From NCBI RefSeq assembly GCF_016026235.1, contig NZ_CP065613.1: a stretch of DNA of 64,000 bases. One strand, given 5' to 3'. Positions 22,510 through 62,008 of this stretch are shown here, piece by piece (positions within the stretch are counted from its first letter, which is position 1; every line of letters begins with the position of its first letter). The position numbers and the translations under genes are program-made. Origin of the DNA: Escherichia coli (GTDB lineage Bacteria; Pseudomonadota; Gammaproteobacteria; Enterobacterales; Enterobacteriaceae). The notes under the pieces were generated by a model that was not told where the DNA came from, ran no database searches, and worked only from the letters and a program-made list of their open reading frames with translations.

Positions 22510-22822
22510 TATTGTGGTGATGTACGGGGAGATTTATCTGTTTAAAAGTCCGTAGCTGTTAATATCAAGAGATAATCGTGAAATAAACGGAAAATCAAGC
22601 TCGACATGTAATGGTAGTATCCATCATGTTGCATTTGTGTTCGATCGTAATGTCAGTTCACTTGGCTGCAATATATTTTGCGTAATATCATCAATGCTCT
22701 GTCGATATTCCAATGTGTGACAATCGAAAGATATGCATTTTATTTGCTTCTTTGTCAAAACTTTATTGTCGTAGAAACAATACCCATCAATTAAAATCTC
22801 TCAAAGTAAAAGAACCAGCAAC

Positions 22823-23377
22823 ATGTCCAGCAAAATAAGGAAAAGTATCAGTATGAGAGCGATTTTCAAATGTTATTCTCTAATGATTTTATTTGCAGTA
22901 TCAGGCTGTTCAATGGCAAAAAATAGCGGTGATTACACTGCTGTGGATATTAATGGGATAAATCATACGGATAAGGATATAAATTATATACACATCAATG
23001 GTTACGGCGGACCAAATATTGGCCCATTCGGAGACGGTGGAAGATATTGTTGCGTTATGCTGCCAGATAAGTGGCATTCTGGATTAAAAGCCCGAGTTGA
23101 GTGGGAGGTTGATCCAAATACAGCTCCTCTGCCTCCAGGCTATAAGGACAGGGAGAAATTTGAAGCATGGAAGAAAGTTGCGCTAAACAGTTTTAGAAAA
23201 TATTCAACAATTGTTGATATCCCGGAATATGATGCTGAGCTTTGTGGCCTGACCGTTCATTTTCTAACGTGTAATCAGATAAAAGTGACAACCGTCTGCC
23301 AGAAATATGGTACACCAAATTATCCTATCAAAGAACCCCGCGAGATGAAGGAACCAGCAACATGTCCAGCAAAATAA
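22823..23377 (+). CDS. DUF3304-like lipoprotein, Tli1-type immunity candidate (copy a)
   Basis: 184 aa, signal peptide with lipobox VSGC; paralogous to the next gene; Cys-rich (RYCCVMLPDKWHSGLKARVEWEVDPN). Confidence 0.5.
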   Translation: MSSKIRKSISMRAIFKCYSLMILFAVSGCSMAKNSGDYTAVDINGINHTDKDINYIHINGYGGPNIGPFGDGGRYCCVMLPDKWHSGLKARVEWEVDPNTAPLPPGYKDREKFEAWKKVALNSFRKYSTIVDIPEYDAELCGLTVHFLTCNQIKVTTVCQKYGTPNYPIKEPREMKEPATCPAK

Positions 23378-23904
23378 GAAATGGAATGAATATAACAAAA
23401 GTAGTTAAAGGCTGTCTGGTATTAATTTTGATGGTGATTTCGGGTTGCTCAGCAGCTAATTACGACGATTATACTGCAGGTGATCTCCGGGCAATAAATC
23501 ATATTAAAGGTATCAGTATTAATTGGTTCACCGTAAATGGTTATCGGGTCCATGGTTTGGGCGGTGGATATTGCTGCATAATGTTACCAGAGAAGTGGCA
23601 TTCTGGATTAAAAGCCCGGATCGAGTGGGAAGTAGACCCGAACCCCCTTGAACCTATTGCAATGAAAAAAGAAGGTTTTGGCTATGAAGAAGATGCTTAT
23701 GCTAAACATGCTGCAAATTATCAAAAATATAAAGTAATTGTTGATATCCCGGAATACGGCGCTGAACGTTGTGGCCTGACCGTTCATTTTCTGCCGTGTA
23801 ATCAGATTAAAGTGACAACCGTCTGCGAGGGCTATGGCACACCGAATTATCCTATCAAAGAACCCCGCGAGATGAAGGAACCTGCAACATGTCCAGCAAA
23901 ATAA
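23362..23904 (+). CDS. DUF3304-like lipoprotein, Tli1-type immunity candidate (copy b)
   Basis: 180 aa paralog of 22823..23377; the 3-prime approx 130 bp are about 90 percent identical between the copies. Confidence 0.5.
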   Translation: MSSKIRNGMNITKVVKGCLVLILMVISGCSAANYDDYTAGDLRAINHIKGISINWFTVNGYRVHGLGGGYCCIMLPEKWHSGLKARIEWEVDPNPLEPIAMKKEGFGYEEDAYAKHAANYQKYKVIVDIPEYGAERCGLTVHFLPCNQIKVTTVCEGYGTPNYPIKEPREMKEPATCPAK

Positions 23905-25982
23905 GTGGTCTGGCTTTTCCGTGTTATGCCCCCCCGGTGTTCCCTGAAGATGGGCGATTAATATTATCTGAAGTGCAGGTAAACGCGAACTACCTAAAAC
24001 AAATCAATAAAACAGAGGAGCACAAAACCAACTGTAGTAAACAGGCTGGATTTAGAATTGGCTTTACGTGTAATCAAAGTCTGCATATTAGTCTGTTTTT
24101 TGATGGTACAAATAATAATGAATATAATGACACAAAAGTCTCTCATCCAACCAATATTGCGAAATTATTCCACACAAGTATCGAAGACCGTAATGCTGGG
24201 TATTTTTCCTATTACATACCTGGTGTAGGCACACCATTTCCCAAGATAGGTGAAATGGATTACAGCAACAGCGGACTGGAATTTGCCACCGGTGGTGAAG
24301 ACAGGATTAATTGGGCATTATTACGCCTCGTGGATGCTCTTAGCTATGCTATTGACCCTACCCAAAATGGGCTGAATGAGAAGGTGGCAAAAGAGCACAT
24401 TCCTGTCATGCGAGCTCACTGGCCGATGACTGGTGAAGTGAATCGTCGCAATGTGATTAACCCCTACCTGGAAAAATTACAGGGGCAGTTAGAACAAGCC
24501 AGTCCGCGCCTGCTAAACGTAAAGCTATTTATCTACGGATTTTCCCGTGGCGCAGCGGAAGCGCGAACCTTTGTTAACTGGTTGACTCAGTTAGCTTGCC
24601 CGCAGAGGCAACAGGTGATGCTGGCCGGTTTAGCTGTCAGTATTGAGTTTTTGGGGCTGCTGGATACCGTAGCTTCTGTGGGGGCGGCGCATGTTTTGCC
24701 GGGCGCTGCCGGTCATATGGGATGGGCCGATAGTACTCAGCAACTCCCTGATGAGCGGCACTTTCCCGGCCTGATTAAATGCTGTCGTCACTTCGTTGCC
24801 GCGCATGAGCAGCGGCTGTGCTTCCCGCTGGATTCAATCCGTCGTCCTGAAGGCAATTATCCTTTATATGCAGAGGAAGTGATCTATCCGGGGATGCACT
24901 CTGATGTCGGTGGTGGCTATCCCGTTTGCGATCAGGGGAAGTCCTGTGGAGGTCCAGATGAAATTCTCTCTCAAATTGCTCTGCATGATATGTATCTTGC
25001 GGCGTTTGATGAGGGCTCTCCATTATCAGTGCATCCTTTATTCATAACCAAAATGATAAAAGATATTTCACCATCAAGAGCTATGTCTGATTCATCAATT
25101 GCTGAATTTGTCATCGCTCCAATGTTGATTAAACGCTTCAACATCTGGCGTCAAGCGCTGCTGAACACCACCTTGCAGGGTACAGAAGAAATGATTGATA
25201 CGAGGGAAGGTTATCACTCCTATCAACTTGCCCAGGTTCTTGAAAGCGCAATTAGCGATCAGATCGGCTGGATCACCGCCTGGCGTATCGGTCGCTATGC
25301 GAATAACAGCCTTCTTGTGCAACCTTTTTATATTAAGGCGCCACAGCTGGATAAAGATGGACTTGATAAAGAGGCTAAAGCGCGTAAAGAACAAATGGAA
25401 AATATTGAAAAAGAACAGGCGAACAAGCAGAAAGGGAATGGCACACTTGATGAAAGTAATCAGGGCATTCCTATCCTTGACCCAACCAATGCTCAGTATC
25501 AGTTGCGAGAGGCAGCCCGAGAATTTCAGAGCGATTATAAAGGATGGACGCGCGATATTAACGGCAGCGTCATGGAGAAAGCCATTCAGATTCTTGTGGA
25601 TGTCATTCCTAAATATCCGGTGTATCTGATTAATGGCGATGATGAAGCAAAAGAATATCAGCAAATTAAGGCTATGGGAGACGGACTCTATCCACAATTT
25701 TTTATTGATTCACTGGGAACGGGAACGCGTACTCAGCCATGCGCTGAATTACTGGCTCTCTATGATGACCAGGTTCACGACTCCCGCGCCTGGTTTATGC
25801 AAAGTTCGCTGGGTGGACGCGAACCCTGGGGCGGTTATTTTCGCTACCGCATGATTTACTTCGGTGATGAGGCTAATAAAGAGCTGAAGCTAATCTCTGC
25901 AGATGGCAAAGTTGTTGGCGATCAGCCCACATCCAACCGGGTCATTTATTGGATGGAATCGAAAACGGTGAGCCGAGGTTAA
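23889..25982 (+). CDS. Tle1-like phospholipase effector (DUF2235 alpha/beta hydrolase)
   Basis: 697 aa; DUF2235 hallmark HISLFFDGTNNN and nucleophile elbow GFSRG; follows adaptor and lipoprotein genes. Confidence 0.7.
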   Translation: MSSKISGLAFPCYAPPVFPEDGRLILSEVQVNANYLKQINKTEEHKTNCSKQAGFRIGFTCNQSLHISLFFDGTNNNEYNDTKVSHPTNIAKLFHTSIEDRNAGYFSYYIPGVGTPFPKIGEMDYSNSGLEFATGGEDRINWALLRLVDALSYAIDPTQNGLNEKVAKEHIPVMRAHWPMTGEVNRRNVINPYLEKLQGQLEQASPRLLNVKLFIYGFSRGAAEARTFVNWLTQLACPQRQQVMLAGLAVSIEFLGLLDTVASVGAAHVLPGAAGHMGWADSTQQLPDERHFPGLIKCCRHFVAAHEQRLCFPLDSIRRPEGNYPLYAEEVIYPGMHSDVGGGYPVCDQGKSCGGPDEILSQIALHDMYLAAFDEGSPLSVHPLFITKMIKDISPSRAMSDSSIAEFVIAPMLIKRFNIWRQALLNTTLQGTEEMIDTREGYHSYQLAQVLESAISDQIGWITAWRIGRYANNSLLVQPFYIKAPQLDKDGLDKEAKARKEQMENIEKEQANKQKGNGTLDESNQGIPILDPTNAQYQLREAAREFQSDYKGWTRDINGSVMEKAIQILVDVIPKYPVYLINGDDEAKEYQQIKAMGDGLYPQFFIDSLGTGTRTQPCAELLALYDDQVHDSRAWFMQSSLGGREPWGGYFRYRMIYFGDEANKELKLISADGKVVGDQPTSNRVIYWMESKTVSRG

Positions 25983-49388: not shown

Positions 49389-50099
49389 ATGACCATTGAA
49401 ACACTGCGCGGGCGCTATCGCCTGCACCGTTTCCCGCCCCGCCAGCGTGCGGTGACCGGAGAACCGCTCACCGCCAGCATCAGCGCCGCCGATTACCAGC
49501 GCCAGTTGATGGACGGTTTTCAGGAAGGGCTGCAAAAAGGGTTTGCTCAGGGAATGACCGAAGGTCAGGAGCAGGGCTTTAGCGAAGGTCATCAGCAAGG
49601 TTTTGCCGAAGGGCGACGTCAGGGCTACACCGAAGGCAGCCTCGCCGGGCAGCAGGAAGGGCGCAAACAGTTTGTTGAGGCGGCGCAGCCGCTGGAAGCT
49701 ATCACCGGTAAAGTGAACGATTTCCTCGCCCATATCGAACGTAAACAGCGGGAAGATTTGCTGCAACTGGTGGAAAAAGTCACCCGTCAGGTGATCCGCT
49801 GCGAACTGGCGCTGCAACCGACGCAGTTGCTGGCGCTGGTGGAAGAGGCGCTGGCGGCCTTCCCGGCAATGCCGGAAACATTACAGGTGATGCTGAGTAC
49901 AGAAGAGTTTAACCGCCTGCGCGACGCGGTGCCGGAAAAAGTCAGCGAATGGGGGTTGACGCCTTCGCCGGATCTGCCGCTGGGGGAATGTCGGGTGATC
50001 ACTGACAAATCCGAACTGGATATCGGCTGCGAGCATCGCCTTGAACAATGCATGACCGCGCTGAAAGAAACACTCACGCCGGAGTCGCAGGGTGAGTGA
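49389..50099 (+). CDS. lfiH: Lateral flagellar FliH homolog
   Basis: 236 aa between fliG and fliI homologs; repeated GxxxG-type segment (QEGLQKGFAQGMTEGQEQGFSEG). Confidence 0.6.
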   Translation: MTIETLRGRYRLHRFPPRQRAVTGEPLTASISAADYQRQLMDGFQEGLQKGFAQGMTEGQEQGFSEGHQQGFAEGRRQGYTEGSLAGQQEGRKQFVEAAQPLEAITGKVNDFLAHIERKQREDLLQLVEKVTRQVIRCELALQPTQLLALVEEALAAFPAMPETLQVMLSTEEFNRLRDAVPEKVSEWGLTPSPDLPLGECRVITDKSELDIGCEHRLEQCMTALKETLTPESQGE

Positions 50100-51429
50100 T
50101 TTTTCTGCGTTCGATAACGCCCTGCGCTCGCTGGAGTCGATCCCGCTGGCCCGCGTCGCCGGGCGGCTGGTGCGCCTTAACGGCATCCTGCTGGAGAGTG
50201 TCGGCTGCCCGCTAATGACCGGGCAGCTGTGCCGCATCGAAAGTGCCAATCACACGCTGATCGACGCGCAGGCCGTGGGCTTTAATCGCGACATCACCTA
50301 TTTAATGCCGTTTAAACAGCCGGTCGGCCTGATGGCAGGCGCACGCGTCTTCCCAGAAGAAAAAGCCCACGACATCCTGATAGGCGAAAGCTGGTTAGGC
50401 CGCGTGGTGAATGGCCTCGGCGAACCGCTGGATGGCAAAGGCCGCCTGAACGGCAACGACCTTCTGCCGCCGTTGCCGCCCTCGGTTAATCCCTTAACTC
50501 GTCGTTCGGTAGACGAACCGCTGGACGTGGGCGTGAAAGCGATCAACGGCCTGCTGACCATCGGCAAAGGCCAGCGCGTCGGACTAATGGCGGGCAGCGG
50601 CGTCGGGAAAAGCGTGCTGCTGGGGATGATCACCCGCCAGACCAAAGCCGATATCGTGGTGGTTGGGCTGATTGGGGAACGCGGGCGCGAAGTGAAAGAG
50701 TTTATCGACCACTCGCTGGGCGCGGACGGGCTGGCAAAGTCTATCGTCGTCGTCGCGCCTGCCGATGAATCGCCGCTGATGCGTCTGAAAGCCACCGAAC
50801 TGTGCCACTCCATCGCCGCCTGGTTTCGCGACCGCGGGCATCACGTCTTACTGCTGGTGGATTCCCTGACCCGCTACGCGATGGCGCAGCGGGAAATCGC
50901 CCTTTCGCTCGGCGAACCGCCCGCCACCAAAGGCTATCCGCCGTCGGCATTCGGCATGATCCCCAAACTGGTCGAGAGCGCAGGCAACAGCGAAAGCGCG
51001 GGATCGATGACCGCCATTTACACCGTGCTGGCGGAAGGCGACGACCAGCAAGATCCGATTGTCGACTGCGCCCGCGCGGTGCTGGACGGGCATATCGTGT
51101 TAACCCGCAAACTGGCGGAAGCGGGGCACTATCCGGCCATTGATATCGGCCAGTCGATCAGCCGCTGCATGAATCAGGTCACCAGCCTGGAACATCAGCA
51201 ATCTGCCCGCGCGTTAAAGCAAAACTATGCCGCCTACATGGAGATCAAACCGCTGATCCCGCTCGGCGGCTACGTGGCAGGCGCCGACGCCAGCGTCGAC
51301 AAAGCGGTGAAAATGTTCCCAGCTATCGAGCGGTTTTTGCGCCAGGAGATGCGCGAACCCGCCTCCCTCGAACTGGTGCAAAGCCGCCTGCAAATCCTCT
51401 TTCCTGGTGTCAAAAAGGCAGAACAGTAA
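50092..51429 (+). CDS. lfiI: Lateral flagellar export ATPase FliI homolog
   Basis: 445 aa; Walker A GSGVGKS, F1-ATPase beta-like. Confidence 0.9.
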   Translation: MSDFSAFDNALRSLESIPLARVAGRLVRLNGILLESVGCPLMTGQLCRIESANHTLIDAQAVGFNRDITYLMPFKQPVGLMAGARVFPEEKAHDILIGESWLGRVVNGLGEPLDGKGRLNGNDLLPPLPPSVNPLTRRSVDEPLDVGVKAINGLLTIGKGQRVGLMAGSGVGKSVLLGMITRQTKADIVVVGLIGERGREVKEFIDHSLGADGLAKSIVVVAPADESPLMRLKATELCHSIAAWFRDRGHHVLLLVDSLTRYAMAQREIALSLGEPPATKGYPPSAFGMIPKLVESAGNSESAGSMTAIYTVLAEGDDQQDPIVDCARAVLDGHIVLTRKLAEAGHYPAIDIGQSISRCMNQVTSLEHQQSARALKQNYAAYMEIKPLIPLGGYVAGADASVDKAVKMFPAIERFLRQEMREPASLELVQSRLQILFPGVKKAEQ

Positions 51430-51431
51430 CT

Positions 51432-51866
51432 ATGCGACAAATCATCGACACCCTGGCGCAGTTGCAGCGCCTGCGGGATAAATCGGTCAAAGACAAAACC
51501 GTCGAGCTGGCAAAGCAAAAACAGATTTGCGCGGGCTATGACAACAATATCAAAGCATTAGGCTATCTGGTGGAGAAAACGTCTGCGGGCGCGGCGGCGT
51601 CGGTGGAATCGCTGAAAAACGTCAGCGGCTACAAAGGCACTTTGCGCAAGGTGATCGCCTGGCAGGAGCAGGAAAAAACGCTAGCTAACATCAAAGCCAC
51701 GCGAATGCAGAAAAACCTGACGGCGGCGGCGTGCGAAGAGAAAGTGGTGGCCCTGACGCTGGACGACAAACGCCGCGAGCAACAAGAAAGCGCCACGGCG
51801 AAAGCGCAAAAAGCGGTGGACGACATCGCCGTTCAGTGCTGGCTGCGGCATAAATTAGCGGAGTAG
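51432..51866 (+). CDS. lfiJ: Lateral flagellar FliJ homolog
   Basis: 144 aa coiled-coil protein after fliI homolog. Confidence 0.55.
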   Translation: MRQIIDTLAQLQRLRDKSVKDKTVELAKQKQICAGYDNNIKALGYLVEKTSAGAAASVESLKNVSGYKGTLRKVIAWQEQEKTLANIKATRMQKNLTAAACEEKVVALTLDDKRREQQESATAKAQKAVDDIAVQCWLRHKLAE

Positions 51867-51868
51867 CC

Positions 51869-52264
51869 ATGAAAACGGTCATCACCTTCGGCACCTTCGA
51901 TGTGTTTCATGTCGGTCATCTGCGCCTTTTACAACGCGCCCGCAAGCTGGGCGAACGGCTGCTGGTCGGCGTATTGTCCGACGCCCTGAACATCGCCAAA
52001 AAGGGCAGGGCACCGGTTTACCATCAGGATGACCGCATGGCGATCATCGCCGGGCTGGCGTGCGTGGATGGCGTATTTCTGGAGGAATCGCTGGCGCAGA
52101 AAGCGGAGTATTTGCGGGGGTACAGTGCGGATATTTTAGTGATGGGGGATGACTGGGCAGGGAAGTTTGACGATTTCTCGTGTGTCTGTGAGGTGGTCTA
52201 TTTTCCCCGTACGCCGTCGGTATCGACGACGGGGATCATTGAGGTGATTAGGGGGAATGCATGA
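51869..52264 (+). CDS. Glycerol-3-phosphate cytidylyltransferase (TagD/TarD-like)
   Basis: 131 aa; VITFGTFDVFHVGHLRLL (HxGH motif), VMGDDWAGKFD and EVVYFPRTPSVSTTGI closely parallel Bacillus TagD as I recall it. Confidence 0.8.
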   Translation: MKTVITFGTFDVFHVGHLRLLQRARKLGERLLVGVLSDALNIAKKGRAPVYHQDDRMAIIAGLACVDGVFLEESLAQKAEYLRGYSADILVMGDDWAGKFDDFSCVCEVVYFPRTPSVSTTGIIEVIRGNA

Positions 52265-52275
52265 CAAAATAAAAT

Positions 52276-52839
52276 TTATTTTTGAGCCTCAAAGTAATTG
52301 AAGAAATATGTGTTATATTTATTTGTGTCTTTTTGTTTTATTCCATTTTTGCTAAAATAACTGTTTTTGTTTGTTGATATCTCTATTTCGATAGATTTTT
52401 CTTTTTTCATATATTCAATTTTGCATTTGTAATATCTAATAACGATATTTTCCCCATCCTTTATAACTTCAAAAATATTTGCATCATGCAGTTTGTCTAA
52501 TTTTCTATTCAAAAAGAAAGCGTCTGTTACCAGCGTTTCAACCTTGTTATTATAAGAAAAAAAGAAGCTCGCTGCACCCATATCGTTGCTTTCAAAAACT
52601 TGCTGTATATTCCCTTTAAAAAGGATGGTTTGCACTATAGTTGTTGGGGAAGAGTTTTTCTTACTATGGTTACTATAAGTTTTCATATTAATAACCATAT
52701 CCTTAAGTATGTCATTTTCCCCATATACTTCAAAGGCAGGTAGGTTTTTATTATAATCTGGATACACTATTATCATGAATAATAGAATCAAGCTTCTCAA
52801 TATAATACTAATCATTTGATTTATTCTTCCGGTGATCAT
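52276..52839 (-). CDS. Hypothetical membrane/secreted protein (AT-rich insert, gene 2)
   Basis: 187 aa, N-terminal hydrophobic segment (MISIILRSLILLFMIIVY), Asn/Lys-rich; 32-nt overlap with upstream gene. Confidence 0.4.
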   Translation of the reverse strand: MITGRINQMISIILRSLILLFMIIVYPDYNKNLPAFEVYGENDILKDMVINMKTYSNHSKKNSSPTTIVQTILFKGNIQQVFESNDMGAASFFFSYNNKVETLVTDAFFLNRKLDKLHDANIFEVIKDGENIVIRYYKCKIEYMKKEKSIEIEISTNKNSYFSKNGIKQKDTNKYNTYFFNYFEAQK

Positions 52840-53629
52840 TAAAACTGCTTTGATTGCAGGTTAAAATCAATTTCCCATTATTATAACACTGCATAGGGAG
52901 AGACTTTAGTGGATTTTTATCATCCGGAAATAAGGCATCCCATCCTTGACCTTCAGAACAGGCAACCATGTATGTTGGTGAAAAAGACCAACCTATATTT
53001 ATTGACCTCATAATCGAAGTTGTCCTAATATCTGGGAAATAAGATGGATAAGTACTTTCTGTTTGTCCCCAGACATTAACGTCCTTAAAATTATCTAATA
53101 GGGATAATTTACTGGCAAAACCTTGTCCTGAATCATCACTTGCATAACTAGTGCGACAACCATACATAACAAACATAGCGTTATTTGACCAGTTAAAATC
53201 AATTGAATCCCATCCTCCGATTATGTTCATTTGTTGTGGGTATTTAGGCACGGAAGGTGTATTTACAGAGTCTGAGGTTGTAGGACCATGAATTGGCCCC
53301 CCATGTGAGAATAAACTGACTTCTTTAACTTTTGCTTTGGTTATACCTCCATTCTTGTTTATAAAGGTTTCTAATATTTCTTTGATTTGATTAAATGTGT
53401 TAATTGATAAATGGTAAACTATCTGTGTTTCTTTTTTATACTCGGGGGAGTAAAGGATGTTGAAATAACGCGTCAGACATGCTTCTTCAAAAATAGAACG
53501 TCGGCTATCACCGGACTCATCAACCCAAAATAATAGAAACAATTCCTTTGGGCGAGATATTTTTTGAGTGACAATGTTGTTTTGTTTCTGGCTTGTTGTA
53601 CCGGAAGTTACTTTTTTATCATAAGTCAT
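52808..53629 (-). CDS. Hypothetical protein (AT-rich insert, gene 1)
   Basis: 273 aa; candidate catalytic residues in SLFSHGGPIHG (approx 105-115) and MYGCRTSY (approx 155-162); no family recognised. Confidence 0.4.
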   Translation of the reverse strand: MTYDKKVTSGTTSQKQNNIVTQKISRPKELFLLFWVDESGDSRRSIFEEACLTRYFNILYSPEYKKETQIVYHLSINTFNQIKEILETFINKNGGITKAKVKEVSLFSHGGPIHGPTTSDSVNTPSVPKYPQQMNIIGGWDSIDFNWSNNAMFVMYGCRTSYASDDSGQGFASKLSLLDNFKDVNVWGQTESTYPSYFPDIRTTSIMRSINIGWSFSPTYMVACSEGQGWDALFPDDKNPLKSLPMQCYNNGKLILTCNQSSFNDHRKNKSND

Positions 53630-53844
53630 GTTATCGTTTATGCTCTATCAATTTTAACAAAATGTTAAATTACGCAATAATTGTTATAGTGTGTAACCTA
53701 TATTTATGATAAGCAATATGTTTAGCAAGATTCAGGTTTTTTCAGAATTCATAAAGATCGCTCCCCCACAATCTACGACTTTTACCGATTCACCAGTCAT
53801 AAAGCGATGAGTTTGAAATCAGAGGGTAGTTAAGTGCGTTGTTC

Positions 53845-53945
53845 GTGCCAGATGCGGCGTAAACGCCTTAACCGGCCTACAAATCCTTACAAATTCAATA
53901 CATTGCAAGGTCGCGTAGGCCTGATAAGCGAAGCGCATCAGGCAC
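53845..53945. repeat. REP elements
   Basis: GCCAGATGCGGCGTAAACGCCTTAACCGGCCTAC and GTAGGCCTGATAAGCGAAGCGCATCAGGC palindromes. Confidence 0.6.
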
Positions 53946-53954
53946 TTGCGCGGT

Positions 53955-54767
53955 TTACCCAAACGCCTCTACAATCACCATCGCCGCCCGTTCTCCCGCT
54001 TTGCCATCCATAAACGCATCGCAATAATGATGGCGAATTTCCGCCAGCTTCGTCTGCACCGCCCCCCAGTCAAACGCCTCTGACAGCAAATAACGCAGTT
54101 CCGCGACATTATGAGCCACCGGCAATATTTCGCGAATCCGCTGGTCGGCGCTCTCTGCCGTGGAGTAACTTTTCTCACCGTCGAGCAAATCATTCATGCC
54201 CGGAAAGTCGAGCAGGATCACCCGCTTATCAACGTGGATAGCATCGAAAATAAAACCGCTGTTATCGGTCAGCACGTAATCGGCCTTTGCCAGTAGCGCC
54301 AGCGTGTGGCGGGCGGAGTCGGTGCGCTGTTTTAAGTGCCTGCGCGCCAGGGCCAGCGATGCGGCTTCTTCCGGGCGTGAGCAGGTGCCGTGGTGCAGTT
54401 TGCAAATCAGGTTCACATCACCGCTTAAGCGGCCCAATTTTTCTGCCCAGTGGGGCAGGGAGCTTAGTGCGCCAAACGTTGGGGCGTAGAGCACCGTAGG
54501 TTTACGGTCATCCAGTTCGATATTTCTCGGCAACGCGCGATCAAACGTGCCGTTATGCCAGGCGTCGAAGCGCGGGTTGCCGACCACTTTTGCGCTGCCG
54601 AAATGTTCCAGCGCCTGCTGGCTGTAGTGGCTGTAACACAAAATGCGCTGATAAAAACGGTTCCAGTCGGCGTGGTTCCACGTCTCTTTAGCTAAGCCGT
54701 ACATAGCGCGGACGTTCACCGCTGCCAGGCCATTGAGTATGGCGTGTGGTAGGGGCTGACCAGGCAT
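53955..54767 (-). CDS. CDP-glycerol glycerophosphotransferase (TagF/TagB-like) C-terminal region
   Basis: 270 aa with TagF-family blocks GNPRFD, VLYAPTF, KLHH, YVLTDNSGFIFDAIHVDKRVILLD. Confidence 0.65.
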   Translation of the reverse strand: MPGQPLPHAILNGLAAVNVRAMYGLAKETWNHADWNRFYQRILCYSHYSQQALEHFGSAKVVGNPRFDAWHNGTFDRALPRNIELDDRKPTVLYAPTFGALSSLPHWAEKLGRLSGDVNLICKLHHGTCSRPEEAASLALARRHLKQRTDSARHTLALLAKADYVLTDNSGFIFDAIHVDKRVILLDFPGMNDLLDGEKSYSTAESADQRIREILPVAHNVAELRYLLSEAFDWGAVQTKLAEIRHHYCDAFMDGKAGERAAMVIVEAFG

Positions 54768-56392
54768 TTCACTCGCAGGCCGTGTGCCTGCATTGCCGAT
54801 AAGTGCATTCCTTTAAGCTGCGGGTCGTCGATGCTTTTTAGCGTTGCCAGCATCTCATCAAGAAACGGTTTAAACACGCGGTCGTTGATCACCAGCGTGC
54901 AGCTCTGCCCCTGCGCCTGTAGCGCGGTGATGATTGGGCGGTAGAGCGCGTAGTGGAAGGAGGTTTCCATAAAAAAGCCGATGGTGTCGGCGATGGGTAA
55001 TGCGGATGGCTTTGTGGCTACGGGTAACTTATTGAAATAGTGACCAATGTTGTCAGTCGCTTTTTTCTCTATATCGCTAAAGCCCGGTCGCTGATAACTA
55101 AGGCTCGGATAACAGGCCAGCCATTTGTCGGCGCGTAGCAGCGGCTGCCAGCAGGCTTCCAGCGAGTGCTCATCGTTGCTCATCTGCTGCGCCAGTTGCG
55201 GGTAGTAGCGGCTGTTCACCAGATAAGCGCATACCTTGCGGCAGTCCCGCGCGTGCACCAGCCCCGGCAAACTTTTTAGCATCGTTCCCTGCGAAATTTC
55301 GCCGCCAAGGATCATCACCTGCCAGGGAATTTTCGCCAGGCTCGCCAGCAGCGTGTTCAGCACCTGAATATGTTTCTCCTGCTTGAGAATAACCGCGTCA
55401 TCTTCCAGCAGCAGGTAGTTTTGCCAGCTGTGCTGTTGCGCCAGGCGCAGCGCCTGCAAGTGTGAATGGCGGCGGCCCCGTTGACCGTTTTCATCTTCAT
55501 TGGCGGCAAGGCGGGTGATCTTCTCGGGTGGAATATGCAGCAGTGCCAGTTCTTCACGGATCTGCTGTAAGCGATCCGGGCGTTTATCCAGATTCACGAT
55601 GACCACCTGATCAATCGCCTGATGGTTGATTGCCTGGTGATGAGTGGCGTTATGCAGACTCAGATAAGCGTTGCGTAGCAGCGGATCGCTGACGATGTCG
55701 CTCAGTTCGGCGTTTACAGGCGTGCTGGCCCCGAGAATAAAGTCTTTATCAAAGGTGTTGTGGCTGTGCGAGATACACAGAATCGTGCGCTCGCCGGGCA
55801 ACTGCAGCGGGTTAACGCTGAAATTGTTGGTGAAACTTTTCTCTTCGCTCAGATTGCAATCGTCATCGTAACGGTGCTTTTTCAGGTAGTTACAGTGATA
55901 GCAAAAGGTGCCGTTGAGGATGTTATGCGGGCCAAAGCTGCGGCTTTGAAAGATACGGTTGATATGGCTGTACCAGATGGGGATCTGGTCAGAACCGGAG
56001 ATGAGCGCCCGGTGTTTTTGCATTATGGCGATGGTGTAAGAGATTTTATCTGCCGGGTAGTAGTCGTCGTCATCCATGCAGAGGATATATTCGCCGCGCG
56101 CCAGTTCGTTGAGCATATTGCGTTTTTTGCCCAGCGGCAGTTTTTCCGGGTGATGGATGTAGCGGATGTTGAAGGACTCCGGCGTGCCATTGGTCAGGCG
56201 GTCGATGATGTGTTGATGGCTTTGCGGGGAGTCGTCGAGGATGACCAGTTCGCGGTGATCTGCCGGGTAGTCCTGATAGCGGTACATGTAGAGCAGGTAC
56301 GGCAGGAATGTGGCACGGTTCCAAGTTGGCGTGACGACGCTCACGAAGGGTTTTTCGCGGTGAGTAGCGAGTGTTTTGATGATGGTTTGCAT
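54716..56392 (-). CDS. Multidomain glycosyltransferase (GT2-like N-terminus, GT25-like middle, TagF-like tail)
   Basis: 558 aa; GT2-type start (VSVVTPTWNRATFLP...ILDDSP, DDD), central VVIVNLDKRPDRL block; overlaps the downstream TagF-like ORF by 52 nt in another frame. Confidence 0.6.
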   Translation of the reverse strand: MQTIIKTLATHREKPFVSVVTPTWNRATFLPYLLYMYRYQDYPADHRELVILDDSPQSHQHIIDRLTNGTPESFNIRYIHHPEKLPLGKKRNMLNELARGEYILCMDDDDYYPADKISYTIAIMQKHRALISGSDQIPIWYSHINRIFQSRSFGPHNILNGTFCYHCNYLKKHRYDDDCNLSEEKSFTNNFSVNPLQLPGERTILCISHSHNTFDKDFILGASTPVNAELSDIVSDPLLRNAYLSLHNATHHQAINHQAIDQVVIVNLDKRPDRLQQIREELALLHIPPEKITRLAANEDENGQRGRRHSHLQALRLAQQHSWQNYLLLEDDAVILKQEKHIQVLNTLLASLAKIPWQVMILGGEISQGTMLKSLPGLVHARDCRKVCAYLVNSRYYPQLAQQMSNDEHSLEACWQPLLRADKWLACYPSLSYQRPGFSDIEKKATDNIGHYFNKLPVATKPSALPIADTIGFFMETSFHYALYRPIITALQAQGQSCTLVINDRVFKPFLDEMLATLKSIDDPQLKGMHLSAMQAHGLRVKCLVSPYHTPYSMAWQR

Positions 56393-57092
56393 GATATGTT
56401 TACGAAGTAGATAAGGCCGGGAAAAACCGGCCTGAAAGCGTTAGCAAGGTAGCAGCGAAAACGCATAAAGCAGCGGCTCTGCGCAACATTCAGCCTGAAT
56501 TTGTTGGCGAATCAGCAGCGCATTTTCACTCTCTCGCCAGCGTTCAAACATGGCAAAGAGGGCGAAAATATCCTCCTGCCGCAGCGGAGAACCATCCAGC
56601 GTCCATAAACTGATTAACGTGCGGAGGAGATAAAAATCGCACACCAGCGGGAAATAATCCGCCCCGTCAGTCTGCCCAATCATATCGTGGTAAACGCGGT
56701 AAATCAGCCAGTTACGCATCATCCAGGGCGCGGTGGCAAAATGCTGTTGCCAGGTGGTTTGCCACTGCGTCTGAAGCTGCTGTTGTAACAGGGCTTCGCT
56801 GTTGGCGTCATGCAGCGTCAGTAAAGTAACCTGCAACGGCAGCGAGGCTTTGCGCGGGCTTTCCGGCAAAATCGACCAGTCAAACGCACAACCGCCGAGC
56901 AGCGTCATCAACTGGCGCGCCAGCTGTGGCACGGGTGGGAGCTGGGCGTACTGTGCCTGTAGCGTACCTTTTTTCGCATGATCGGCCAGCGCCTGTGGCA
57001 GCGTCGTCAAACGGGCCAGGATGTCTCCGTCTCTGCCCGGCATTTTGCTGGCGCGGGAGAGCAAAATCCCGACAGCATACAGGGAAAGCTCC

Positions 57093-58383
57093 TGAGGAAT
57101 CCCCAGAAAACAAGACAGGCATAGTGAGATGTGATCTAATTGATTGTGCTAACAATTTCAAGGAGATCACCACTATGCCTGCACGTTCATTATGCCAAAA
57201 TTTCCTTAACAATATACTGGCCCCTTTGCATCTTTACCGTCAAAAATCACTGATTGACGCAACTAATGCTGTAATAAATGGCGCTTCCCTCACACTTACC
57301 AGTATCGGGCGTCATTTAACCGGTACGGCATCAGTTAAAAACAAAATAAAGCGGGTGGATCGACTGTTGGGGAATCGACATTTGCAAAATGAGGTTTCCA
57401 CCATTTTTTAGCGAATTACCCAAAAGATTACGCGGGGAATGTCTCGTGTTGTGATACTCATTGACTGGAGTGCTTATCATGCCTCTCGTTTTCAGCTTTT
57501 GCGGGCAAGCCTGGCATGTGACGGGCGTTCTTTACCGTTGATGAGTTGTGTCGTTCCATCATCACAGACAGCGAATGCAGATGTACATGAGCGTTTTCTG
57601 GAATCGCTTGCTGAGTGCTTTTCCCCCGGGACTGATGTCATTGTTATTACAGATGCCGGTTTTCAGGGGCGATGGTTCCAACAGCTCCGCTCCCGTGGCT
57701 GGACCTATATTTGCCGGGTACTGGGCAATCATTATTACAATGTTGGTAATGGCTGGGAAAAGGTGTCGGACTCAGGCACAAAAGCATCAACGACAGCAAT
57801 TTATTTAGGTGAAGGCCTGCTGGGTCGAGATAAAAATGCACAACATGAAGGGCATTTTTATCTTTATAAAAGTAAGCCTAAAGGTCGTAGATTTAAACGC
57901 TCGAAGGAAAGAGCAACCAGACCATCGGTGACGGCTAAAGCTCGTACTGCCGGGAAATCACCATGGTTTATTTTCACAAACAGTACTGAGTTCTCGCCAA
58001 AACAGGTAATGAAATTATACAGCCGTAGAATGCAAATTGAGCAAAATTTCAGGGATGAAAAAATCCTCGCTGGGGATTTGGACTACGGTTTGGTGCCAGT
58101 CATTCATCCGGGCGGGTCACGGTATTGAGTCTGATCGCAACATTAGCCAGTATCATTATGTGGTTAAGCGGTTTCAGCCTGGAAAACAAAGGGATACATC
58201 ATAAATATCAGGCAAATACAGTGAAGCACAGGCGAGTCATCTCGTTATTAAAACTGGCGGAGAATGTGATTCGACATTCTCCACTCATACTAAACACACT
58301 GTCACTTGACGCAGGGCTGAAAGTTCTACAGCAACGGTATACCAATATGATAATGGTTTACTAAATTTTCTGGGGATCCCTCA
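57093..58383 (+). mobile_element. IS4-family-like insertion sequence, copy 2 (mutated), inverted relative to copy 1
   Basis: Same inverted repeats as copy 1; 11-bp direct repeat GGGAAAGCTCC at 57082-57092 and 58385-58395. Confidence 0.8.
57175..58364 (+). pseudogene. IS transposase pseudogene (nonsense codon plus 1-bp deletion)
   Basis: Relative to copy 1: CAG to TAG at approx 57410 and an A6 run where copy 1 has A7 (approx 58066-58071); track shows three ORF pieces. Confidence 0.75.
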
Positions 58384-58802
58384 GGGGAAAGCTCCGGGGT
58401 TAAATCACGGAGCGTGAGGGTACTCAAAATCACCTGGTTTACTATCGCATCGCGCGCGGAAAGCTCTGCGGAATTATCTTCCACAGGGCGGTAGGTGAGC
58501 TGTAAATCAAAGGCCCTGACATCGTTGAGCACCGCTTCGCAGCTGGCAATATCGGTCAATGACAGGCTCAGGCGAATCTCGTTTTTCCACACCTTGCGGA
58601 CGTATAAAGGCGAACCGGGGTGACGCGCTAAAAATTTGCGCACGTATTCCGGTTCGTAACATTCAATAAAACTCATAGGTGGCTTCCAGTCTTTAATGCT
58701 GTGCAGGATATGCAATAAGCGTGCCGGGGATTTTTGTAATTAAAAACAAGGGATTGGAAATCAGGCGGAAAATCCATTTCCGCTATGGGGAAGGTATTCG
58801 CG

Positions 58803-59231
58803 TTATTCCTGATAGAGAAAATCTGCTTCGCTGCCTAAAAACGACTGAATAAATTCATACTGGCGAATCAACAGCTCGCCGTTTTTATCGTTGTAGGCTT
58901 TGCAGCGTTCCGCTTTTTGCTCAAGGCGTTGCCACAACTGCTGTGCTGCCGCTTTTTGTACCGCAGGAAGCCAGGCAAATACCTGCGCCAGACCGTCACG
59001 ATTTACGCTAACACCGAGCATTTTCAGCAGGCTGTGCCGTTGATGGCTATGTCCATGCAACTGCTCATAGTGATGCATTATCTCCTCGTTTACTGCCAGC
59101 AGCTCCTCGCTGGCGCGGCGAATCATGCAGATCCGCTGGCGCTGGAGACGTTCGCGCAGGGAATCATACAGCGCGTCGTCGTCACGAATTCCCTGCAGCA
59201 ACGCCTTCACCTGTTGTAACCGGATACTCAC
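58803..59231 (-). CDS. lfgN: Lateral flagellar chaperone FlgN-like
   Basis: 142 aa helical protein downstream of flgM homolog; mainly positional. Confidence 0.5.
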   Translation of the reverse strand: MSIRLQQVKALLQGIRDDDALYDSLRERLQRQRICMIRRASEELLAVNEEIMHHYEQLHGHSHQRHSLLKMLGVSVNRDGLAQVFAWLPAVQKAAAQQLWQRLEQKAERCKAYNDKNGELLIRQYEFIQSFLGSEADFLYQE

Positions 59232-61919: not shown

Positions 61920-62008
61920 AGCCTGATGCGCTTCGCTTATCAGGCCAACACCAAAGTTATCGCCACCAGCACGCAGCTCGATGACGCGCTGTTCCAGGCA
62001 ATGTAATG
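61920..62008 (+). other. REP-like palindrome plus approx 20-codon coding remnant where lfgE is expected
   Basis: GCCTGATGCGCTTCGCTTATCAGGCC followed by an in-frame ...NTKVIATSTQLDDALFQAM-stop that overlaps the lfgF ATG as TAATG. Confidence 0.45.

Follow-up and report, generated by a model that had tools for sequence, protein, structure and literature searches.

The question raised by this locus is what a gene resembling tagD, which encodes the glycerol-3-phosphate cytidylyltransferase of Gram-positive teichoic acid synthesis, and a glycosyltransferase (GT) gene with a TagF-like part are doing in the middle of a flagellar gene cluster of Escherichia coli. The genes lie in a stretch of 64,000 nucleotides from E. 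coli contig NZ_CP065613.1 (assembly GCF_016026235.1), referred to here as the window, and an earlier note made from its sequence had proposed a cytidine diphosphate (CDP)-glycerol module that modifies the lateral flagellin. The interval belongs to Flag-2, the locus for the lateral (secondary) flagella of E. coli, and is its variable region 1 (VR1), which lfiJ and lfgN enclose. In intact loci the module probably places a sugar and glycerol-phosphate on the lateral flagellin LafA, and in the window it is a decaying remnant.

Both the observation and its interpretation are already in the literature, as a prediction from genome sequences. In 2020 De Maayer, Pillay and Coutinho, who call the lfiJ-lfgN stretch VR1, reported from it a TagD of 133 amino acids in 235 strains of 10 genera, a glycosyltransferase GT2-1 of 828 amino acids in 222 Enterobacteriaceae, annotated with pfam00535 only, the proteins TagB1-8 in 65 strains, and LafV, and they concluded that teichoic-acid-type glycopolymers are probably part of the Flag-2 flagellin glycan (PMC6993521). 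The earlier note's suggestion of lateral-flagellin modification is thus plausible as an inference but not new. The locus and the genes are the same here; the fused TagF-like domain and the second GT-A domain of GT2-1 are not in that paper, and the copy in the window is pseudogenised. What is added here is the three-domain structure of GT2-1, a quantified coupling of TagD with TagF-type domains, a link to the PA1091/CD0244 class of flagellin-modifying enzymes, and the finding of CDP-amidate-type neighbours in Plesiomonas.

Positions 50000-58000 of the window were 99.9% identical to E. coli FDAARGOS_943 and 94.5% identical to the intact Flag-2 loci of many strains. In annotated records the gene order runs flhA-flhB-fliRQPNM, lafK-fliEFGHIJ, the variable stretch, flgN-flgM-flgA and flgB onward. 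The genes from lafK through tagD are spaced by 2-14 base pairs (bp) or overlap, and the tagD start lies 2 bp past the lfiJ stop (51866), so that tagD looks like the last gene of the lafK-to-tagD string. The G+C content of tagD, the GT gene and lafV was 55-56% (tagD 56%), compared with 59% for the lfiE-J core and 28-36% for a toxin cassette that lies between tagD and the GT gene. That the teichoic acid genes were recently imported from Gram-positive bacteria, as the wording of the earlier note could imply, was rejected because tagD, the GT gene and lafV match the Flag-2 core in G+C content and are kept across many enterobacterial genera.

The TagD-like protein matched Pfam PF01467 with E 2.8e-19. 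Its residues 1-129 aligned to residues 1-128 of Bacillus subtilis TagD (1COZ) with E 1.5e-31 and 44.5% identity, and Staphylococcus aureus TarD (2B7L) also aligned along the whole protein (E 1e-26). The next family, ethanolamine-phosphate cytidylyltransferase, followed at E 2.5e-17, which is 14 orders of magnitude weaker than the TagD match. The motifs named in the earlier note were all found: the nucleotide-binding HxGH motif (H14-V-G-H17, aligned to H14/H17 of 1COZ), VMGDDW and EVVYFPRT..VSTT, the C-terminal RTxGISTT motif reading R-T-P-S-V-S-T-T in this single-domain protein. Across 18 Flag-2 TagD orthologues HxGH, D11, K44, R55/56, D66, DDW and RT..STT were conserved. Residues of TagD reported from mutagenesis to be functionally important are K44/K46, R55, R63, D66, W74, D94 and W95; of these, K44, R55(56), D66, D94 and W95 were conserved, and K46 paired with R47 after a one-residue insertion. 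The Flag-2 protein thus shares size, fold family and signature motifs with the Gram-positive TagD and TarD enzymes, and its predicted activity would be the conversion of CTP and sn-glycerol-3-phosphate into CDP-glycerol and pyrophosphate.

On the opposite strand two open reading frames (ORFs), 54716-56392 (558 amino acids) and 53955-54767 (270 amino acids), hold what the earlier note described as a GT2/GT25 multidomain glycosyltransferase and a TagF-type domain. The coordinates were right, but the note missed that the two are a single gene split by a 1-bp deletion at 54740, where the window reads GG and both the intact strain A32 and FDAARGOS_943 read GGG; in A32 both regions are annotated as one glycosyltransferase of 812 amino acids. 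The reading frame is lost near residue 550, within the TagF-like domain, and H480 is parted from W572/H574 and H667/H668, so that the shorter ORF holds the distal two thirds of this GT-B domain. The deletion could be an error of sequencing or assembly in a three-base homopolymer, leaving the GT gene of the real strain intact: it is a single-base difference in a GGG run against a relative 99.9% identical, and the insertion sequence (IS) copy in lafV, described below, is likewise one indel away from its relatives. We consider such an error unlikely, as only 2 indels were found in about 26 kilobases (kb) aligned to FDAARGOS_943, which speaks against an error-prone assembly, and the lineage is visibly decaying, FDAARGOS_943 carrying damage of its own. 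Even if the frameshift were an error, the conclusion of decay would not change, since the IS disruption of lafV and a deletion in the hook gene lfgE stand regardless.

In the intact protein a GT2 domain is followed by a second, GT25-like GT-A domain and then by a phosphotransferase domain of the GT-B fold, a divergent member of the TagB/TagF family. For this assignment 23 full-length orthologues were aligned to find invariant columns, and an AlphaFold2 model was used, with a mean predicted local distance difference test (pLDDT) score of 75 and with its C-terminal third the most confident part. The GT2 domain was matched by PF00535 in all 16 family members (E 2.8e-18 for the E. coli protein), and its acidic, DxD-type motif D107-D110 was invariant in the orthologue alignment. 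For the second GT-A domain the Pfam GT25 profile (PF01755) gave no match in the E. coli protein, and among 16 relatives none reached E<=1e-3 and one reached E<=0.1; weak precomputed PF01755 matches were seen only in Plesiomonas homologues and in standalone VR1 paralogues. The domain is homologous (E ~1e-48) to these standalone VR1 proteins of 214-225 amino acids. In a Foldseek search of the Protein Data Bank (PDB) human COLGALT1, a GT25 enzyme, accounted for the top eight matches, which cover the N-terminal half with both GT-A domains over about 550 aligned columns (E 2e-13 to 3e-11). A sequence profile of the whole enzyme against the PDB found the GT2 domain together with weak COLGALT1/R655 matches (E 0.05-0.15). 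The GT2/GT25 multidomain enzyme of the earlier note therefore holds for GT2 by profile, and for GT25 by fold and not by Pfam.

COLGALT1, which belongs to CAZy family GT25, resembles the N-terminal half in having two tandem GT-A domains and is an enzyme that glycosylates a protein side chain. It differs in that identity is 12-13%, both E. coli domains keep acidic DxD-type motifs, and there is no sign of a hydroxylysine acceptor. The first GT-A domain of COLGALT1 itself is non-catalytic.

The C-terminal domain was the best predicted part of the model, with 10-residue block means mostly of 82-96 over residues 470-812. Foldseek matched it to TagF (3L7I/3L7J, E ~6e-9), TarL and the capsule polymerase Cps3D (8QOY, E 8e-8). 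PF04464 reached E<=1e-3 in 7 of 13 orthologues (best 9e-11), as against 1 of 13 for Epimerase_2, and standalone orthologues of about 350-390 amino acids from other genera nearly all carry a precomputed PF04464 match and are named CDP-glycerol glycerophosphotransferase family proteins. An alignment with TarL pairs YAPTxG/KLHH/TDNSGFIFD with TarL FAPTFR/KMHP/SDYSSLIYE. The TagB/TagF family is characterised by a pair of catalytic histidines, of which the first stacks on a tryptophan and the second belongs to a KxHP motif (H444/H584 in TagF, W299-H300 and H433 in TarL; PMC10901376). Among 64 members of the present family H480 was conserved in 100%, W572/H574 in 98% and H667/H668 in 95/97%, KLHH aligning with KMHP of TarL. 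The likeness to the Gram-positive TagB, TagF and TarL enzymes consists of the GT-B fold, relatives that match PF04464, and histidines conserved in each of the two subdomains, candidates for the catalytic pair. The distance from the candidate catalytic histidine H574 to PRxD is about 30 residues shorter than in TarL, which may come from the absence of the TarL membrane-binding insertions. In contrast to the Gram-positive wall teichoic acid system there is no tagO/tagA pathway for a lipid-linked acceptor and no TagGH transporter, and two GT domains share one protein with the TagF-like domain. This fusion also explains why TagD is far commoner than standalone TagB in the published survey (235 against 65 strains), because GT2-1 carries its own TagF-like domain.

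If the two activities belong to one pathway, their genes should travel together. Loci were collected from relatives of the N-terminal two-domain region, with one genome per species, together with contigs encoding chosen variants, and were scanned with profiles for TagD, the TagF-like domain, FliJ, FlgN and LafV, leaving 30 Flag-2 loci that were complete and free of duplicates. Of these, 15 had TagD together with a TagF-type domain, 1 had a TagF-type domain without TagD, none had TagD without a TagF-type domain, and 14 had neither (Fisher p = 2e-7). This co-occurrence supports a link between CDP-glycerol supply and a glycerol-phosphate transfer step, so that the joint synthesis and transfer proposed in the earlier note gain ground for intact loci, though not for the window, where the module is broken. 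The fused form was found with TagD in Escherichia, Pseudocitrobacter, Citrobacter, Enterobacter and Pseudescherichia, and a standalone TagF-like protein with TagD, beside a short GT of 455-526 amino acids, in Erwinia oleae, C. sedlakii and E. wuhouensis. One further locus (L023), which lacks lfgN and lies outside the count of 30, had been considered an exception to the coupling; this was overturned, its 403-amino-acid neighbour being a canonical TagF relative (3L7I, E 5.8e-14) that occurs with TagD, a third arrangement beside the fused and standalone ones.

GT variants lacking the third domain, or carrying Capsule_synth (PF05159) in place of the TagF-like domain, had no TagD, and the C-terminal module of the GT enzyme appears to be exchangeable. 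A full-length three-domain homologue with 39% identity from a metagenome-assembled Plesiomonas genome (GCA_051658765.1; locus L006, 8001-15618) adjoins motAB and a sigma factor gene. Its neighbours, instead of tagD, were a PRK05849-type kinase (901 bits), a gamma-glutamyl-CDP-amidate hydrolase-like protein (112 bits, below the cutoff) and a nucleotidyltransferase, three genes reminiscent of the phosphoramidate (CDP-amidate) pathway of Campylobacter. Which donor the C-terminal domain uses thus seems to follow the genes beside it, and another CDP-linked donor may be used in Plesiomonas. In a wider form of the polymerase reading, which is discussed below and is unlikely, exchangeable C-terminal domains with matching donor genes would amount to a plug-in system diversifying the charge and antigenicity of the filament, because TagD tracks the TagF-like form, CDP-amidate-type genes track the Plesiomonas form, and no TagD occurs with the Capsule_synth form. 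The Capsule_synth (KpsC/KpsS-type) variants were seen in loci L005 (8001-10628, PF05159 on record) and L012 (9926-12577, replacement inferred), which have no tagD and instead carry, for example, a hexapeptide acetyltransferase and a standalone GT25-like protein.

From these data a pathway can be proposed for intact loci. The TagD-like enzyme would make CDP-glycerol from CTP and sn-glycerol-3-phosphate. The GT2 domain of the cytoplasmic 812-amino-acid enzyme, probably together with the GT25-like domain, would add one or two sugars to serine or threonine residues of LafA, and the C-terminal TagF-like domain would then move glycerol-phosphate from CDP-glycerol to the LafA glycan, forming a phosphodiester bond and releasing CMP. 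The adjacent LafV would methylate lysines of the flagellin. The domain content of the genes, the single GT gene, the close association of TagD and TagF-type domains in genomes and the position inside flagellar gene strings are observed; from these we infer CDP-glycerol as the donor, the LafA glycan as the acceptor, and a single transfer rather than polymerisation.

Flagellin is a plausible target because the GT gene adjoins lafV in nearly all loci and because the fusion of GT2 with a TagF-like part is the design studied in experiments for the glycan on Pseudomonas aeruginosa b-type flagellin. In intact strains the GT gene lies 46 bp downstream of lafV, and in almost every Flag-2 locus examined lafV and the N-terminal region of the GT were neighbours. 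LafV is homologous to FliB, which methylates flagellin lysines (NF038110 Lys_methyl_FliB, E 1.1e-10). LafA of strain A32 (locus L087, 3403-4317) has 304 amino acids and a central region very rich in serine and threonine. This LafA has few lysines and none within the Ser/Thr-rich centre, though the lysine methylase gene lafV is conserved beside the GT gene.

Precedents come from two flagellin systems. In Clostridioides difficile, CD0244 is a predicted TagF-like phosphotransferase using a CDP-activated donor made by CD0242, and its loss leaves the core N-acetylglucosamine (GlcNAc) alone on FliC (PMC10714395). In P. aeruginosa PAO1, PA1091 fuses GT2 with a CD0244-like part, and pa1088-pa1090 mutants keep only the deoxyhexose (PMC11833859). 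The mutants show that the phospho-linked portion of these flagellin glycans depends on CD0244 and on the PA1088-PA1091 genes (PMC10714395, PMC11833859). The Flag-2 module likewise combines a GT2 domain, a TagF-like phosphotransferase and a synthase for a CDP-linked donor at a flagellar locus (lfiJ-lfgN), with the GT2 and TagF-like parts in one protein as in PA1091. In the PA1088-PA1091 and CD0240-CD0244 systems this design serves to put a GT2 sugar on Ser/Thr of flagellin, to activate a CDP donor through a nucleotidyltransferase and to form a phosphodiester through a TagF-like step; for Flag-2 the same series is predicted from the genes. The donor proposed for those systems is CDP-(N-methyl/dimethyl)threonine, the product of a CD0242-type enzyme whose fold family is a different one, whereas the TagD-type enzyme of Flag-2 points to CDP-glycerol. 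The GT25-like domain is an addition of the Flag-2 enzyme, and genes for a phosphoserine-phosphatase-like protein or a glycan methyltransferase are absent from the Flag-2 module. A word-indexed protein search with the profile of the C-terminal domain returned enterobacterial and Plesiomonas relatives only and gave no bridge to PA1091 or CD0244.

The capsule polymerases Cps3D, Cps1B and Bcs3 offer a different comparison, as they too are multi-domain Gram-negative enzymes that join a GT to a TagF-like polyol-phosphate transferase and have a dedicated glycerol-3-phosphate cytidylyltransferase (PMC5974469, PMC8262930). In the Flag-2 enzyme the GT and TagF-like domains could likewise alternate, building a poly(glycosyl-glycerol-phosphate) chain of teichoic-acid type on flagellin and not one capping glycerol-phosphate. 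Fused enzymes making such polymers do exist in Gram-negative bacteria (PMC5974469, PMC8262930), Cps3D is among the structural matches, and De Maayer et al. use the term 'glycopolymers' (PMC6993521). The capsule enzymes, however, belong to group 2 capsule loci with ABC-transporter genes and make long polymers on a glycolipid, while the Flag-2 context is flagellar and has no export or lipid-anchor genes. Polymerases of the TagF family have an extra N-terminal domain, and primases or single-transfer enzymes have about 350-400 amino acids (PMC10901376); the standalone orthologues here, at 350-370 amino acids, are of the latter size. The flagellin precedents CD0244 and PA1091 add a single phospho-group, and by our own reasoning a long anionic polymer is hard to reconcile with unfolded passage through the narrow flagellar export channel. 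Polymerisation is therefore an unlikely mode of action; if it did occur, it would mean a protein-anchored teichoic acid in a Gram-negative bacterium, synthesised in the cytoplasm without a lipid carrier.

Several points weigh against the proposal of a single glycerol-phosphate transfer to LafA. On the side of TagD, the NCBIfam equivalog TIGR01518 gave 111.1 bits, below its cutoff of 165.4 bits, and because of this most copies are named only 'adenylyltransferase/cytidyltransferase family protein' by the Prokaryotic Genome Annotation Pipeline (PGAP). R63 of the Gram-positive enzymes is alanine in the Escherichia and Pseudocitrobacter copies and lysine or arginine in other Flag-2 copies, and W74 is leucine throughout the Flag-2 copies. 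On the side of the C-terminal domain, the E. coli sequence matched PF04464 with E 0.024 as the 812-amino-acid protein and 0.0039 as the domain alone. The best sequence match of the domain profile in the PDB was TarL at a marginal E of 0.015; the family motifs are altered, YAPTxR to YAPTxG and DYSS to DNSG; and the conserved histidines are consistent with the catalytic pair of the family, with a residue-to-residue mapping onto H444/H584 of TagF that is a candidate one. GT-B UDP-GlcNAc 2-epimerases match the fold of the domain as well as TagF does. The p value of the coupling overstates the evidence, as the loci are related and not phylogenetically independent, and locus L018 (9977-12982; Enterobacteriaceae bacterium UBA7338, metagenome-assembled) was the sole one with a fused TagF-like domain and no tagD in the region, which could be due to loss of the gene, to a copy at another place in the genome or to an artefact of assembly. 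In L018 the GT gene is followed directly by lfiJ; its close relative Pseudescherichia vulneris (L017) has tagD there. Finally, LafA expression was undetectable in the sequence type 131 (ST131) strain EC958 under laboratory conditions (PMC4637896), and in the literature we found no mass-spectrometric data for any Flag-2 flagellin, no experiment showing its modification, and no report of a glycerol-phosphate glycan modification on any flagellin.

The possibility that the C-terminal domain is itself a UDP-GlcNAc 2-epimerase was rejected, since in spite of similar fold scores the Pfam counts given above favour PF04464, the TagF motifs fit and the domain tracks TagD.

The departures seen in TagD could also mean that the substrate is not glycerol-3-phosphate but another phospho-alcohol or a phospho-amino acid, the enzyme activating it and the TagF-like domain transferring that group, as in the CDP-threonine proposal for C. 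difficile. The score below the equivalog cutoff, the changed R63 and W74 and the inserted residue beside K46 would fit this, as would the Plesiomonas homologue with its CDP-amidate-like genes in place of tagD, and the TagF-like domains of flagellin systems have been proposed to use CDP donors other than glycerol (PMC10714395). Yet the best matches by far, along the full length, were two solved glycerol-3-phosphate cytidylyltransferases. The E. coli region has no kinase or phosphotransferase for an unusual phospho-substrate, and glycerol-3-phosphate is a central metabolite; CD0242, moreover, comes from a different nucleotidyltransferase family (PMC10714395). A different donor is accordingly a distinctly remote prospect, and CDP-glycerol is retained here as the predicted one.

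Just as remote is a different target, that is, another exported flagellar protein such as the hook or cap, or an envelope glycan, with the flagellar location reflecting an insertion hotspot only. VR1 is documented as a hotspot for unrelated cargo genes (PMC6993521). A toxin cassette sits in the middle of the module, and no flagellin-specific recognition domain was identified in the enzyme. Against this stand the 2-bp spacing of tagD from lfiJ in one gene string, the company of the GT with the flagellin methylase gene lafV in nearly all Flag-2 loci across genera, and a G+C content like that of the flagellar core and unlike that of true cargo; in addition, no lipid-carrier, flippase or ABC-transporter genes were found in the Flag-2 loci examined.

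If the predicted modification of LafA is correct where the locus is intact, roughly one E. coli genome in four would hold genes for placing an anionic glycan with glycerol-phosphate on a second flagellar filament, with effects on its antigenicity, on its recognition by innate immunity and on its surface behaviour. Of 5426 complete E. coli genomes, about 1278 carry tagD and the GT gene (at least 90% identity), among them ST131 strains, with other cargo or nothing between the two. Through the link to the phospho-glycan systems of Pseudomonas and C. difficile, mass spectrometry becomes a clear test.

Table 1. Features of the Flag-2 variable region and its boundaries in the window.
Feature	Position	Strand	Basis
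lfiJ (Flag-2 FliJ homologue), directly upstream of the module	51432..51866	+	ORF list; annotated fliJ in 99.9%-identical NZ_CP065615 and intact strain A32
tagD-like glycerol-3-phosphate cytidylyltransferase gene, 131 amino acids	51869..52264	+	PF01467, 1COZ/2B7L alignment; S36L at codon 51974-51976
hyp187, probable immunity gene, 187 amino acids; cargo	52276..52839	-	Position only; G+C 28%
hyp273, free-standing homologue of an Rhs toxin C-terminal domain, 273 amino acids; cargo	52808..53629	-	Profile search; G+C 36%
REP/BIME repeat (repetitive extragenic palindromic sequence/bacterial interspersed mosaic element), directly past the GT stop codon	53832..53947		Genome matches and REP motif
Single glycosyltransferase/phosphotransferase gene, 812 amino acids when intact; pseudogene here	53955..56392	-	Alignment to A32 and FDAARGOS_943; 'GT2-1' of De Maayer 2020
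TagF/TagB-like GT-B phosphotransferase domain, residues ~465-812	53955..55000	-	AlphaFold2 and Foldseek, PF04464 in orthologues, TarL alignment, His conservation
Second GT-A domain, GT25-like, residues ~253-460	55013..55630	-	Foldseek COLGALT1; invariant E330-D331-D332
GT2-family GT-A domain, residues 18-132	55997..56341	-	PF00535 E 2.8e-18; D107-D110 acidic motif
lafV C-terminal fragment (flagellin lysine-N-methylase, FliB homologue)	56441..57081	-	A32 alignment; NF038110
ISEc60-like IS4-family element in lafV	57082..58384	+	1303-bp insertion relative to A32; 99.6% identity to annotated ISEc60 copies
lafV N-terminal fragment, start codon at 58676	58385..58676	-	A32 alignment; sequence read
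lfgN (Flag-2 FlgN), far VR1 boundary	58803..59231	-	ORF list and annotation of homologous records

In the window itself the lineage is losing its lateral flagella, and the module is a decaying remnant. Besides the frameshift in the GT gene, lafV, which encodes 310 amino acids in A32, is divided by an ISEc60-like element (Table 1); the earlier note had missed that this gene of the same module, just outside its interval, is IS-disrupted. The transposase is in turn split into three ORFs (56926-57411, 57439-58128 and 58125-58364), and this copy of the element is probably dead. Codon 36 of tagD specifies leucine in the window and serine in all 18 other Flag-2 copies examined, in TagD and in TarD, and FDAARGOS_943 also keeps the serine. 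At the lfgD-lfgF junction (window ~61938-61950) about 1.35 kb are missing, corresponding to 22650-23999 of locus L002 and to most of the hook gene lfgE, and because of this deletion the strain is unable to build the lateral-flagellar hook. With the GT gene frameshifted, lafV split, the S36L change in TagD and lfgE deleted, the module cannot work and no filament could be assembled or modified here. The damage in FDAARGOS_943, the nearest relative sequenced, is independent: ISEc60 interrupts its GT gene, IS5 its toxin gene and an IS element its flgH, and a stop codon lies within flgL. The genome of FDAARGOS_943 has 38 places that match the ISEc60-like element, at other positions.

Two low-G+C ORFs inside the interval (52276-53629), not remarked on in the earlier note, form a probable Rhs-type polymorphic toxin/immunity cassette unrelated to the module. 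The product of the first-named in Table 1, hyp187, had no match in Pfam, NCBIfam or PADLOC and a weak match only in PHROGs; the gene overlaps the 3' end of hyp273 by 32 nucleotides on the same strand, and from this position hyp187 is probably the immunity gene of hyp273. For hyp273 searches of PADLOC, PHROGs, NCBIfam and Pfam gave nothing beyond a weak DUF4347 match, and just seven close clusters were present in a large protein database. Searching 1.84 billion representatives with a profile brought up 339 relatives, with the domain at the extreme C-terminus of the long ones (up to 3576 amino acids). In 4 of 5 long proteins tested (P0248, P0318, P0330 and P0313) it directly follows the RHS-associated core TIGR03696; in P0248 the core spans residues 1223-1312 and the hyp273-type domain 1316-1547. 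The assignment to the Rhs polymorphic toxins was made by homology because of this C-terminal location right after the core. The family shows an invariant FSHxG...YGC pattern, and the AlphaFold model of hyp273 (pLDDT 50) matched caspase, CHAT and C11 folds in Foldseek at E ~0.03, a hint of a cysteine-protease-like fold.

The cassette was present in 144 of 5426 complete E. coli genomes. A part for hyp187 and hyp273 in the modification module was therefore rejected, as they belong to an Rhs toxin family and are absent from most E. coli loci with tagD and the GT gene. A scan for sigma-70 promoters and terminators, which excludes the flagellar sigma-54 and sigma-28 promoters, gave matches concentrated in this AT-rich cassette. 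The repeat that follows the GT gene contains the REP motif gcctgatgcgct.cgcttatcaggcctac, and the 115-bp REP/BIME stretch alone matched 5380 of 5426 E. coli genomes.

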